64,000 nt of DNA from a phage. The position numbers and the translations under genes are program-made. The notes under the pieces were generated by a model, which worked only from the letters and a program-made list of their open reading frames with translations, was not told where the DNA came from and made no database searches. Below, piece after piece: positions 49,678 to 51,660 of the stretch; position 1 is the first letter of the stretch, and each line of letters starts with the position of its first letter. The stretch lies in assembly GCA_014913405.1 (NCBI GenBank), contig GCA_014913405.1_3931.1, one strand, 5' to 3'.

Positions 49678-49920
49678 ATGCAAACATTAACAGTAGTTGA
49701 ACATGAAAACTGTGAGAGTATTGAGTTTGTCAGGGTCATTGGTGTTGAACACCACATTTTCTTAAAAGTGGGATACTTATGTGACCCCGCTAGAGTAGAA
49801 AGATTTATACGTGATTGTTTTGGTGGTAGACATCTGAAGAGTGTTATTTTTGAGACAGTTTTACCAGAAGGTTTAGAAACGAATAATAACATTTACCTCC
49901 TTACGAGGATTAGACAATGA
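49678..49920 (+). CDS. hypothetical protein embedded in the tRNA cluster
   Basis: ORF track; RBS AAAAAGGTG. Confidence 0.4.
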   Translation: MQTLTVVEHENCESIEFVRVIGVEHHIFLKVGYLCDPARVERFIRDCFGGRHLKSVIFETVLPEGLETNNNIYLLTRIRQ

Positions 49921-50474
49921 GATACTTAAAGTATGCTTCATGGATTTTCTTAGCTTTGTTAGAGCCATTTGCAGCAATCTTAGCAGTTATCTTAGCACCT
50001 TTTGTAGTTCCATTCTACAGTGAGAAGAAAGGACACTTACCTTTCGGGTTCAGATGGATGGAGACATATGACAACCCAATTGATGGTGATGAAGGTCACG
50101 TTAAAAGATGGGCTAATATTAGATGGATTGGTAAACTAGGTGTCTACATGCAAAGAGTCGGATGGCTCTGGAGAAACAAAGCTTATAACTTCTCTTACCA
50201 TGTATTAGGAAGAGATGTAAGAGATGTTACTAAGTGGAAAGGTAATATCAACGTAAGTTCTAACCCTGAAGATAATCAGACTGGTTATCTCCTAATGTGG
50301 AACAGTAATGCTTGGGGATTATTCGCTTTTATCCCATCAATTAAAGTCTTCGGTAAACAGTTTTACTGGAGAATTTATGTTGGATGGAAACTTAAAAGTG
50401 TTGTCCCAGAAGAAAGAGCATTCTCAAGGGAAAGAGTTATGTTGGCATTCTTTATTCATCCACTGAGAAAGTAA
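49917..50474 (+). CDS. hypothetical membrane protein embedded in the tRNA cluster
   Basis: N-terminal hydrophobic helix WIFLALLEPFAAILAVILAPFVV; Trp-rich. Confidence 0.45.
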   Translation: MRYLKYASWIFLALLEPFAAILAVILAPFVVPFYSEKKGHLPFGFRWMETYDNPIDGDEGHVKRWANIRWIGKLGVYMQRVGWLWRNKAYNFSYHVLGRDVRDVTKWKGNINVSSNPEDNQTGYLLMWNSNAWGLFAFIPSIKVFGKQFYWRIYVGWKLKSVVPEERAFSRERVMLAFFIHPLRK

Positions 50475-50482
50475 AGATTTAA

Positions 50483-50558
50483 AGGGGATTAGTTTACAAG
50501 GTTAAAACCTCGGTCTTTGAAATCGAAGAAGTTGGTTCAATTCCAACATCCCCCGCCA
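50483..50558 (+). tRNA. tRNA-Gln (anticodon TTG)
   Basis: anticodon arm TCGGT-CTTTGAA-ATCGA, T-loop GGTTCAATTCC. Confidence 0.55.
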
Positions 50559-50560
50559 AT

Positions 50561-50639
50561 GCTCCATTACTCCAATTGGCAGAGAGGCCAGACTTAAAAT
50601 CTGTGTTATGTATCGGTTCGAATCCGATATGGAGTACCA
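50561..50639 (+). tRNA. tRNA, anticodon TAA (Leu), no long variable arm
   Basis: anticodon loop CTTAAAA, T-loop GGTTCGAATCC. Confidence 0.5.
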
Positions 50640-50644
50640 AATTT

Positions 50645-50720
50645 AGCGGTATAGCATAACTGGCAATGCAGCAGTCTCTGAAGCTGTCCTATTAAGGTTC
50701 AAATCCTTATGCCGCTGCCA
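50645..50720 (+). tRNA. tRNA-Gln (anticodon CTG)
   Basis: anticodon arm GCAGT-CTCTGAA-GCTGT, T-loop GGTTCAAATCC. Confidence 0.55.
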
Positions 50721-50751
50721 CTTCTAAGGATTCTTACGAGAGTCCTTAAAT

Positions 50752-50828
50752 GTGGCCTTATCATAAATGGTAATGACCCATGCTGTGAACATGGTCTATA
50801 CGGGTTCAAATCCCGTAGGTCACCCCAA
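50752..50828 (+). tRNA. tRNA-His (anticodon GTG)
   Basis: anticodon arm CCATG-CTGTGAA-CATGG, T-loop GGTTCAAATCC. Confidence 0.6.
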
Positions 50829-50833
50829 TTTAT

Positions 50834-50908
50834 AGTCCAAGTAGCTTATATGGTTAAAGCGCGTGTCTGAAAAACATGAGAAGAGGGTTCAAATCCCACT
50901 GGACTACC
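50834..50908 (+). tRNA. tRNA-Phe (anticodon GAA)
   Basis: acceptor TAGTCCA/TGGACTA, anticodon arm CGTGT-CTGAAAA-ACATG, T-loop GGTTCAAATCC; no CCA encoded. Confidence 0.55.
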
Positions 50909-50925
50909 AATTTCAAAGGTGCTTA

Positions 50926-51660
50926 ATGAAAGAGATGACAGAACAAGGTAAGGAGATTTTCAATCTCTTAAAAACCGGTAAAGGGTTTTCTAACCCCCTT
51001 ATTACTGGTGCAGCAGTTCTCGGTGGAACCGTAGCTGCCTCTACATCACTTGTAAGCTCTATTAGCTCTGTATCAGACCCTACAGTAAAGGATAAGCTTG
51101 TTGCTGCTGGACTTACAACAGTTCTGCTTAACAGCTTTACCACGAGTCTGACAAGCACTACATCAACTACCAAAACACTAACAGATTACGGTCAAAAGTC
51201 CATTGATGAGTTTTCATCACGTATGCAGGTAGCAAAAGGTTACTCTAATGTTATGGGTGCAGCAGGTGAACAAGTTGGCTGTACACCATTTAGTGGTATT
51301 ATGGGTGTTGCTACAGAGTATGGTCAAAAAACTATTGATACGATTAACAGTGTACTAGATAGTGTTAATGGTGTGTTAAGTGACTTACAAGATGCTATTG
51401 ACAAAGGTCTTGATACTATTTCTGATTTAGCTGAGCAAGCTGTTAGTAAGATTAATGAAGGTATTTCAAAAATTACAGCTTATGCAGATGAAGTTGTGCA
51501 GATGATTGAAGAAGAAGCTGCTCTTATTGCAGAGTACCTTAAAACGAATATCAATGGGTTCTTAGCAGGTATCTTACCAGACTGGTTTGATGATGCTTGT
51601 AAAACTGGTGTAATTGACACTATTGCAACACCAGAAATGAAGAACGCATTACAGAAATAA
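50926..51660 (+). CDS. hypothetical Ser/Thr-rich protein embedded in the tRNA cluster
   Basis: ATG at 50926 after AAAGGTG (track start 50863 overlaps tRNA-Phe); internal repeat YGQKSIDEF / YGQKTIDTI. Confidence 0.45.
   Translation: MKEMTEQGKEIFNLLKTGKGFSNPLITGAAVLGGTVAASTSLVSSISSVSDPTVKDKLVAAGLTTVLLNSFTTSLTSTTSTTKTLTDYGQKSIDEFSSRMQVAKGYSNVMGAAGEQVGCTPFSGIMGVATEYGQKTIDTINSVLDSVNGVLSDLQDAIDKGLDTISDLAEQAVSKINEGISKITAYADEVVQMIEEEAALIAEYLKTNINGFLAGILPDWFDDACKTGVIDTIATPEMKNALQK

Follow-up and report, generated by a model that had tools for sequence, protein, structure and literature searches.

We analyzed a 64,000-nucleotide (nt) stretch of phage DNA (NCBI GenBank assembly GCA_014913405.1, contig GCA_014913405.1_3931.1), called the window below, which carries an array of 26 tRNA genes interrupted by three protein-coding open reading frames (ORFs), here ORF1, ORF2, and ORF3. 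All 26 tRNA genes, from tRNA-Pro to tRNA-Cys, and the three ORFs share the + strand in the ARAGORN output and the ORF list, and the spacing between the ORFs and their flanking tRNA genes is 2–17 nt (Table 1). The stop codon of ORF1 and the start codon of ORF2 overlap in an ATGA. A first-pass annotation of the same DNA had placed the three ORFs within the tRNA cluster at these coordinates and had described ORF3 as starting just after tRNA-Phe with a proper ribosome-binding site (RBS); both statements agree with Table 1. Our reading of the locus, to which we give a probability of roughly 0.6, is that the three ORFs are genuine phage genes situated inside a tRNA operon and expressed from it, and are not mobile endonucleases.

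Table 1. The tRNA array of the window, its embedded ORFs, and candidate transcription signals
Feature	Position	Strand	Evidence and remarks
Sigma-70-like promoter candidate, TTGACA-18-TAAAGT with TG	46568..46597	+	Consensus scan; 27 nt upstream of first tRNA
tRNA array, 26 genes	46624..51835	+	ARAGORN; Rfam tRNA model agrees
Second, stronger promoter-like site, TTGACA-17-TATAGT, 11/12	48033-48061	+	Consensus scan; best in region, inside tRNA-free gap
tRNA-Arg(ACG), CCA encoded	49585..49660	+	ARAGORN; 3' end 17 nt before ORF1 start
ORF1, 80 amino acids, 9.3 kDa, phrog_14202	49678..49920	+	RBS AAGGTG 49667-49672
ORF2, 185 amino acids, DUF7338 (PF24027)	49917..50474	+	RBS GAGGA 49905-49909
tRNA-Gln(UUG)	50483..50558	+	ARAGORN; 8 nt past ORF2 stop
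tRNA-Phe	50834..50909	+	ARAGORN; ends 16 nt before ORF3 start
ORF3, 244 amino acids, DUF7217 (PF23854)	50926..51660	+	RBS AAGGTG 50916-50921
tRNA-Ser(GCU) and tRNA-Cys, final two tRNAs	51663..51835	+	ARAGORN; begin 2 nt past ORF3 stop
Intrinsic terminator, long G+C-closed hairpin then UUUUUU	51873..51932	+	RNA fold of 51836-52030
Second terminator-like hairpin, GACGGTCTCTGTGCCGTC then T6	51998..52021	+	Before 66-amino-acid ORF and terminase

The region matches 292 phage records, nearly all of them Felix O1-like, and the window belongs to Felixounavirus; identity in this region is 99.7% to Escherichia phage vB_EcoM-Ro111lw and 98.6% to wV8. Conservation in relatives, named beforehand in the first-pass annotation as a test of the ORFs, is thus borne out. 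ORF2 corresponds to Felix O1 ORF48 (NP_944875) and Bas63 gene 153, and ORF3 to Felix O1 ORF49 (NP_944879) and Bas63 gene 159. Synonymous codon changes outnumber non-synonymous ones by 16:5 to 23:6 in ORF2 and by about 90 to 42 in ORF3 compared with Mooglevirus. For ORF1, a Mooglevirus pair differs by 22 synonymous and 4 non-synonymous changes in the + frame; the antisense frame gives 14:12. Judged from these sequence comparisons, ORF1, ORF2, and ORF3 are real genes under purifying selection.

None of the three ORFs had looked like a homing endonuclease at first pass. Indeed, no match to HNH, GIY-YIG, or LAGLIDADG nucleases was obtained for ORF1–ORF3 in Pfam, PHROGs, or NCBIfam at E values up to 1, or in PADLOC, and NCBIfam and PADLOC returned no meaningful matches at all. 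The ORFs might nevertheless be endonuclease remnants, or chance ORFs in the spacers between tRNAs, given that homing endonucleases fill other slots of relatives' arrays and that ORF1 is small and patchily distributed. However, all three lack any nuclease motif or family match, show purifying selection and conserved length, and, in the case of ORF2 and ORF3, match non-nuclease families along their full length; we consider such an origin extremely improbable.

The three HNH endonuclease genes of the Felix O1 array (ORF44, ORF45, and ORF47) and wV8 gp051, as given in the records of these phages, are absent from the window. At the slots that they occupy in Felix O1 (L006, 3531-4896; ORF47 between tRNA-Gly and tRNA-Thr), the window has either a tRNA or a direct tRNA-tRNA junction, the tRNAs being tRNA-Met (47864-47940), tRNA-Arg(UCU) (48264-48340), and tRNA-Ser(UGA) (48579-48668). 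A given slot of the array thus seems to be filled by an endonuclease gene in one phage and by a tRNA in another. An ORF47-like gene of 414 nt is present in vB_EcoM-Ro111lw.

ORF1 encodes a small, soluble, fast-evolving protein with no transmembrane (TM) segment. No stop codon breaks its + frame in five diverged homologs, the most distant of which is about 40% identical. In wV8, an antisense ORF of 91 amino acids (gp054) is annotated that corresponds to 49617-49892 (− strand) of the window; it overlaps tRNA-Arg and has extra stop codons in other phages. On the sequence comparisons above, the + strand reading is the real one and the antisense ORF probably a spurious annotation. ORF1 was found in only 70 phage records, which fall into three divergence classes. 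Felix O1 and Bas63 lack it (Bas63 lacks tRNA-Arg(ACG) as well), Sf18 has ORF1 without ORF2, and no relatives of ORF1 were detectable outside the Ounavirinae. ORF1 is likely a dispensable, rapidly evolving accessory protein.

ORF2 is a full-length member of DUF7338: it matches PF24027 with 206.3 bits (cut-off 27; E = 4e-61) over residues 1-184 of 185 and keeps the family motifs W-x-E-T-x-D-N-x-x-x-G-D and W-L-W-R-N-x-A-Y. The description of its product as a Trp-rich membrane protein held up: it contains 11 Trp residues (5.9%), and a single stretch, residues 6-36, is strongly hydrophobic (2.38 in a 19-residue Kyte-Doolittle window), with a helix predicted at residues 2-33; its isoelectric point is 9.95. 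The AlphaFold model has a predicted local distance difference test score (pLDDT) of 94.7, and in this model ORF2 would be a single-pass inner-membrane protein composed of an N-terminal TM helix and a compact, Trp-rich alpha/beta domain. The predicted fold matched no solved structure, and a sequence-profile search of the PDB with ORF2 was empty. PHROGs lists the families of both ORF2 and ORF3 as being of unknown function.

ORF3 matches PF23854 (DUF7217) with 296.4 bits (cut-off 29; E = 2.2e-88) over residues 8-243. As had been noted before, the protein is rich in Ser and Thr (20.5% together; 25.6 kDa, isoelectric point 4.4) and contains a YGQK(S/T)ID repeat, as YGQKSID at residues 88-94 and YGQKTID at residues 132-138, 44 residues apart. 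Even in close relatives, the second copy is not conserved, and the DNA that surrounds the copies agrees at only 27 of 54 positions; the repeat is a local peculiarity of this phage and does not characterize the family. Near-invariant positions across DUF7217 comprise an N-terminal F-x-N-P-L, a few glycines, I194, E197, and the cysteines C119 and C225. Members of the family occur in Felixounavirus, Mooglevirus, phiSUSP1-type (Suspvirus-type) phages, and Erwinia Kolesnikvirus, where DUF7217 lies after the last tRNA and before a small ORF and the terminase; distant members are found in Ackermannviridae. An exhaustive search yielded only 24 clusters at 50% identity, all of about 240 amino acids. 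DUF7217 is a core gene of the Ounavirinae and encodes a soluble, acidic, helical protein.

Several labels attached to this family were checked and discarded. Residues 25-43 of ORF3 are borderline hydrophobic (Kyte-Doolittle 1.62), but because distant members have a hydrophilic stretch in its place, the family is not integral to the membrane, and the label "membrane protein" was rejected for want of a family-conserved TM segment. The label "GTP-binding" was traced to phrog_289, a chimeric profile made of two merged Ackermannviridae genes (L018, 4323-5720; L003, 5324-6720; L020, 1833-3220). Its positions 20-146 represent a YAcAr/SLOG domain encoded by a separate gene next to DUF7217 in Ackermannviridae. 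Because the profile merges YAcAr/SLOG with DUF7217, annotation pipelines call both genes "GTP-binding domain"; ORF3 matches positions 262-499 only, outside the nucleotide-binding part, and the label was dropped. We give little weight to a SLOG-DUF7217 fusion as a clue to function: the two are separate neighboring genes, and the three Ackermannviridae genera that show them amount to one lineage. A sequence-profile search of the PDB with ORF3 produced coiled-coil noise only. Matches to tape-measure proteins were weak and partial (E = 2e-5 and worse), and a tape-measure role was rejected for a protein that has 244 amino acids and whose gene lies apart from the tail module; in Felix O1, that role belongs to gp67, of 80 kDa (PMC3185647).

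Candidate transcription signals frame the array (Table 1). One promoter candidate precedes the first tRNA, and the best-scoring site of the region lies within the array. Downstream of the last tRNA, the segment 51836-52030 folds with z = −5.74, and none of 200 shuffled sequences was equally stable; terminator-like sites numbered 13 versus 5.4 expected from shuffles. Before the hairpin at 51873-51932, no convincing terminator was found on the + strand through the array. The tRNAs and the three ORFs therefore appear to form one transcription unit closed by a strong terminator. In the scheme that we propose, transcription would start at sigma-70-type promoters, both ahead of the array and inside it, and would yield a long precursor RNA. 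Cleavage by host RNase P at the 5' ends of the tRNAs, together with 3' trimming, would free the tRNAs and would leave short-leader mRNAs, one carrying ORF1 and ORF2, which would be translationally coupled, and one carrying ORF3. Because the precursor would be processed into tRNAs and mRNAs alike, the ORFs would be made with the tRNAs, early, and apart from the terminase and portal genes past the terminator.

Published expression data for Felix O1 fit this timing at first sight: by reverse transcription PCR (RT-PCR), ORFs 45, 46, 48, and 49 were maximal at 5 min and ORFs 51 and 53 at 60 min (PMC3185647). Two points count against expression from the operon as proposed. Promoter-like matches are no commoner in the region than in shuffled sequence (18 versus 17.5). 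The RT-PCR was an end-point assay in which the major capsid gene (58) was also maximal at 5 min (PMC3185647), so its timing is unreliable and carries little weight.

The arrangement itself appears to have lasted. In L031, a divergent relative whose ORF3 is 59% identical, the DUF7338 and DUF7217 genes both lie inside a reshuffled tRNA array, in which tRNA-Gln(UUG) still comes right after DUF7338 and tRNA-Ser(GCU) after DUF7217. By this comparison of gene order, the embedding of the genes in the array is evolutionarily stable. At 6847-8205 of L031, the array is followed by a homolog of Gad2 (anti-Gabija) in place of the terminase, which suggests that the array there borders a counter-defense region.

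The DUF7338 family reaches well beyond these phages. It was found in 600 phage records, with T4-like members at about 60% identity and Pseudomonas Otagovirus members at 28%, and about 20 genomic contexts were sampled. The gene lies inside the tRNA array in Ounavirinae, L031, Pseudomonas phage VCM (Otagovirus, 28% identity), and Cronobacter phage S13, and 0.2-1.8 kb downstream of the array in JS10, Fraggle, and Melville; in 12 other contexts, no tRNA was present within 5-6 kb. A general association of DUF7338 with tRNAs was rejected on this ground, the synteny being specific to certain lineages (Ounavirinae, L031, Otagovirus, and part of Straboviridae). Nor was support found for co-transfer of the gene with tRNAs between Felix-like and T4-like phages: the flanking tRNAs are 59-71% identical, compared with 62-71% for unrelated tRNAs of the window. 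No match to the lambdoid-type DUF7338 was found in E. coli prophages, and no isolated lambdoid or Mu-like carrier was found in the phage collection.

Other contexts place DUF7338 beside lysis genes. In a lambdoid contig, it abuts the last spanin gene in the order holin-lysozyme-DUF2570-LysC-DUF7338; in two Mu/P2-like contigs, whose endolysins differ in type (GH108 in one and Peptidase_M15 in the other), it lies between the tail-fiber genes and the lysis cassette; and in Aeromonas phage Ah1, lysozyme e follows it directly. In all four contexts, DUF7338 thus adjoins lysis genes or is one gene removed from them. These neighborhoods lead us to propose, tentatively, that ORF2 has an accessory role at the cell envelope, either in lysis control or in protecting the envelope. 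A wider claim is more doubtful still, namely that DUF7338 is an unrecognized, widespread accessory part of lysis or envelope control in phages of Gram-negative bacteria, for example antiholin-like or directed against lysis from without. If it were true, lambdoid and Mu/P2-like phages would have kept DUF7338 in the lysis cassette, and Felix-like phages, Otagovirus, and many T4-like phages would have moved it to the tRNA operon, a place from which early synthesis would be expected.

A number of observations speak against an envelope or lysis role. Lysis-cassette and tail-fiber sites are also classic places for the insertion of unrelated accessory genes, and for that reason adjacency need not imply a shared function. 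The endolysin gene of the window (41620-42084, − strand) lies 7.8 kb from ORF2 on the opposite strand. Seven further DUF7338 contexts were uninformative, their neighbors having no Pfam matches. Positive charges flank the ORF2 helix on both sides and thus favor neither membrane topology.

Could ORF2 be the holin of the phage? It would then be a class III holin like T of T4, with one TM helix and a large periplasmic domain, and would permeabilize the inner membrane as infection ends. The one N-terminal TM helix and the domain of about 150 amino acids suit this idea, holins having at least one TM domain. T4 holin T has the same gross topology. Family members adjoin lysis cassettes elsewhere (Ah1, lambdoid, and Mu/P2-like contexts), some GenBank records label the family "holin", and no holin was identified in Felix O1 (PMC3185647). 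However, ORF2 matches neither the described holin families nor solved holin structures, and it is not the sole holin candidate beside an endolysin, that of the window being 7.8 kb off. The label itself has no stated basis (in the paper that goes with one such record, the term does not occur), and we regard it as unsupported. Holin candidates distinct from DUF7338 are present in L022 and L026. The candidate in the lambdoid contig matches Phage_holin_2; that in L022 is an ORF of 75 amino acids with two TM segments as judged from sequence and with no Pfam match. Because such candidates co-occur with DUF7338 in the lambdoid contig and in L022, and because T4-like phages carry their own holin T, DUF7338 is not the primary holin, and a holin function for ORF2 is improbable. 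The Mu/P2-like lysis cassette of L022 (2877-4674) consists of a 96-amino-acid coiled-coil protein with a single TM domain, a GH108 endolysin, a 72-amino-acid ORF, the 75-amino-acid holin-like protein, and Rz, within whose gene the lipoprotein Rz1 is encoded; its 96- and 75-amino-acid membrane proteins have no Pfam match.

Superinfection exclusion or envelope protection is a less improbable alternative, though still unlikely: much like T4 Imm and Sp, ORF2 would be anchored in the membrane and would stop the genome entry or the tail lysozyme of phages that arrive later, and it would play no part in the phage's own lysis. ORF2 is distributed like an accessory gene, being missing from Sf18, and the identity of about 60% between Felix-like and T4-like members suggests horizontal spread. 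DUF7338 also sits at sites that hold accessory genes, at the junction of tail-fiber and lysis genes and after the spanins. The bor gene of lambda occupies the same position after the spanins as DUF7338 does in the lambdoid contig. Expression of ORF2 is apparently early, by the Felix O1 RT-PCR. On the other hand, ORF2 shows no similarity to known exclusion proteins or PADLOC models, and carriers of DUF7338 use different receptors, which makes receptor masking unlikely. An accessory role for ORF2 at the envelope, in lysis control or protection, is the proposal that we retain as the best-supported of these guesses.

As for ORF3, it is probably non-structural in these phages. The shotgun virion list of Felix O1 lacks ORF49, though the tape measure, present in 3-6 copies, was detected. 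In VpaE1, the ORF3 homolog is called plain "hypothetical", and the proteins detected there by mass spectrometry (MS) are called "putative structural". The MS table of Sf14, which may not be exhaustive, does not list the homolog, and no PDB entry contains a DUF7217 chain, though structures of the capsid, portal, collar, and sheath are available from two Felix-like phages. The Felix O1 paper (PMC3185647) speaks of a Gp49 of 51 kDa as possibly the sheath; this was rejected as evidence on ORF3, which is a 25.6-kDa protein encoded upstream of the terminase. The protein meant is almost certainly gp63 (48.9 kDa), probably through a slip in numbering, and solved structures show the homolog of gp63 (61009-62361 in the window) to be the sheath.

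There is evidence on the opposite side. LIMEstone1 ORF129 (25.03 kDa), which we equate with the DUF7217 homolog by its size and its position relative to gp3, was detected with two peptides in purified virions (PMC3296691). The two near-invariant cysteines would be in keeping with an exposed, disulfide-bonded protein, and the model of ORF3 as an all-helical protein is of moderate confidence (pLDDT 61.6).

The most specific structural proposal would make ORF3 a low-copy virion protein, perhaps the helix-rich trimeric density at the tip of the puncture apparatus in the cryo-electron microscopy maps of Bas63 and Sf14. At least 23 gene products make up the Bas63 virion; 22 of them were modeled, with a C3 helix-rich tip density left over, and Sf14 shows a similar ring at the tip of its puncture apparatus (PMC12609058). 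ORF3 is predicted to be all-helical, is conserved in Felixounavirus and Mooglevirus, has two conserved cysteines and weak profile matches to tape-measure proteins, and its LIMEstone1 homolog was found in virions (PMC3296691). Yet the Bas63 authors ascribe the tip density to a gene of the baseplate module (PMC12609058), and the LIMEstone1 virion analysis also caught evident contaminants, among them rIIB, ligase, PhoH, and gp44 (PMC3296691). The tape-measure matches are typical of coiled-coil noise, and ORF3 is missing from the Felix O1 shotgun proteome, the VpaE1 structural calls, and the Sf14 MS table. The hub of Ackermannviridae is of a different type. DUF7217 is nonetheless present in that family, which is T4-related in genome organization (PMC3296691). 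We judge a place for ORF3 at the tip to be very improbable and keep to the view that the protein is probably non-structural.

Some further features of the array and its borders deserve mention. ARAGORN calls a tRNA-Met(CAU) at 46877-46953 that has no Rfam tRNA match at E values up to 0.1; the Felix O1 counterpart has a low Cove score, 28.9 (PMC3185647), and this tRNA may have degenerated or be atypical. The array has four tRNA-free gaps of 238-429 nt (47355-47783, 48018-48263, 48341-48578, and 48669-48922), in which there is no Rfam match and no conserved ORF on the + strand. Directly upstream of the array, a gene of 471 amino acids (45044-46459, + strand) contains DUF2828 and DUF7788 and holds the same position as Bas63 gp130, a Ro60-like protein that counters the Ppl defense system in a PhageMaP study, whose authors speculated that some of the array "tRNAs" could be Y RNA partners (PMC11482910). 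A comparison of the array gaps with Rfam for Y RNA-like or other structured RNAs gave nothing above any threshold. An acidic ORF of 66 amino acids (52058-52258, + strand) lies directly upstream of the large terminase gene, and small ORFs occupy the same pre-terminase position in Kolesnikvirus (Tian) and Otagovirus (VCM). The small terminase has not been identified in the Felix O1 group (PMC3185647).

The interrupted array is already known and is ordinary for this phage group, having been in GenBank since the genomes of Felix O1 and wV8. A literature search found no paper that mentions DUF7217 or DUF7338 and no published function for ORF1–ORF3. What the analysis contributes is, in part, a tidier annotation: DUF7338 circulates as a "holin" and DUF7217 as a "membrane protein", "GTP-binding domain", or "structural protein", and these labels, like the wV8 antisense ORF and the "51 kDa Gp49", are unsupported or wrong. 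Two leads also emerge. The first is that unrelated phages repeatedly carry DUF7338 next to lysis genes; because Felix O1-type phages serve in the typing and biocontrol of Salmonella and E. coli, an envelope or lysis factor of theirs would merit attention. The second is DUF7217, a core gene of the subfamily that has no assigned role.

The nearest counterparts, Felix O1 ORF48 and ORF49, wV8 genes 53 and 54, and Bas63 genes 153 and 159, occupy the same array positions with 93-97% nucleotide identity and are annotated as "hypothetical" or "phage conserved protein" in Felix O1, wV8, and Bas63. The tRNA regions of T4 and T5 resemble that of the window in being same-strand clusters with small non-essential ORFs in a variable part of the genome, and DUF7338 sits in the T4/T5-type tRNA region of several T4-like phages. 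In T4, the best-known ORF embedded in the tRNA region is the homing endonuclease gene segB. Unlike in T4, none of the three ORFs of the window is an endonuclease, and ORF3 is a core gene of the subfamily, not a variable one. For ORF2, comparison may be made with the T4 antiholin RI, Sp, and lambda Bor, which, like DUF7338, are small, membrane-anchored, non-essential proteins with an extracytoplasmic domain, encoded near lysis genes; ORF2, however, has no sequence or fold similarity to them and, in the window, lies away from the lysis genes.

For expression of the embedded ORFs, the thrU-tyrU-glyT-thrT-tufB operon of E. coli may serve as a model by analogy, as may the T4 tRNA region. In the E. 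coli operon, one transcript carries an mRNA along with tRNAs, and processing by RNase P and RNase E parts them. The phage genes differ from tufB in being flanked by tRNAs on both sides, at distances of 2–17 nt, so that their predicted mRNAs would be almost free of untranslated regions.

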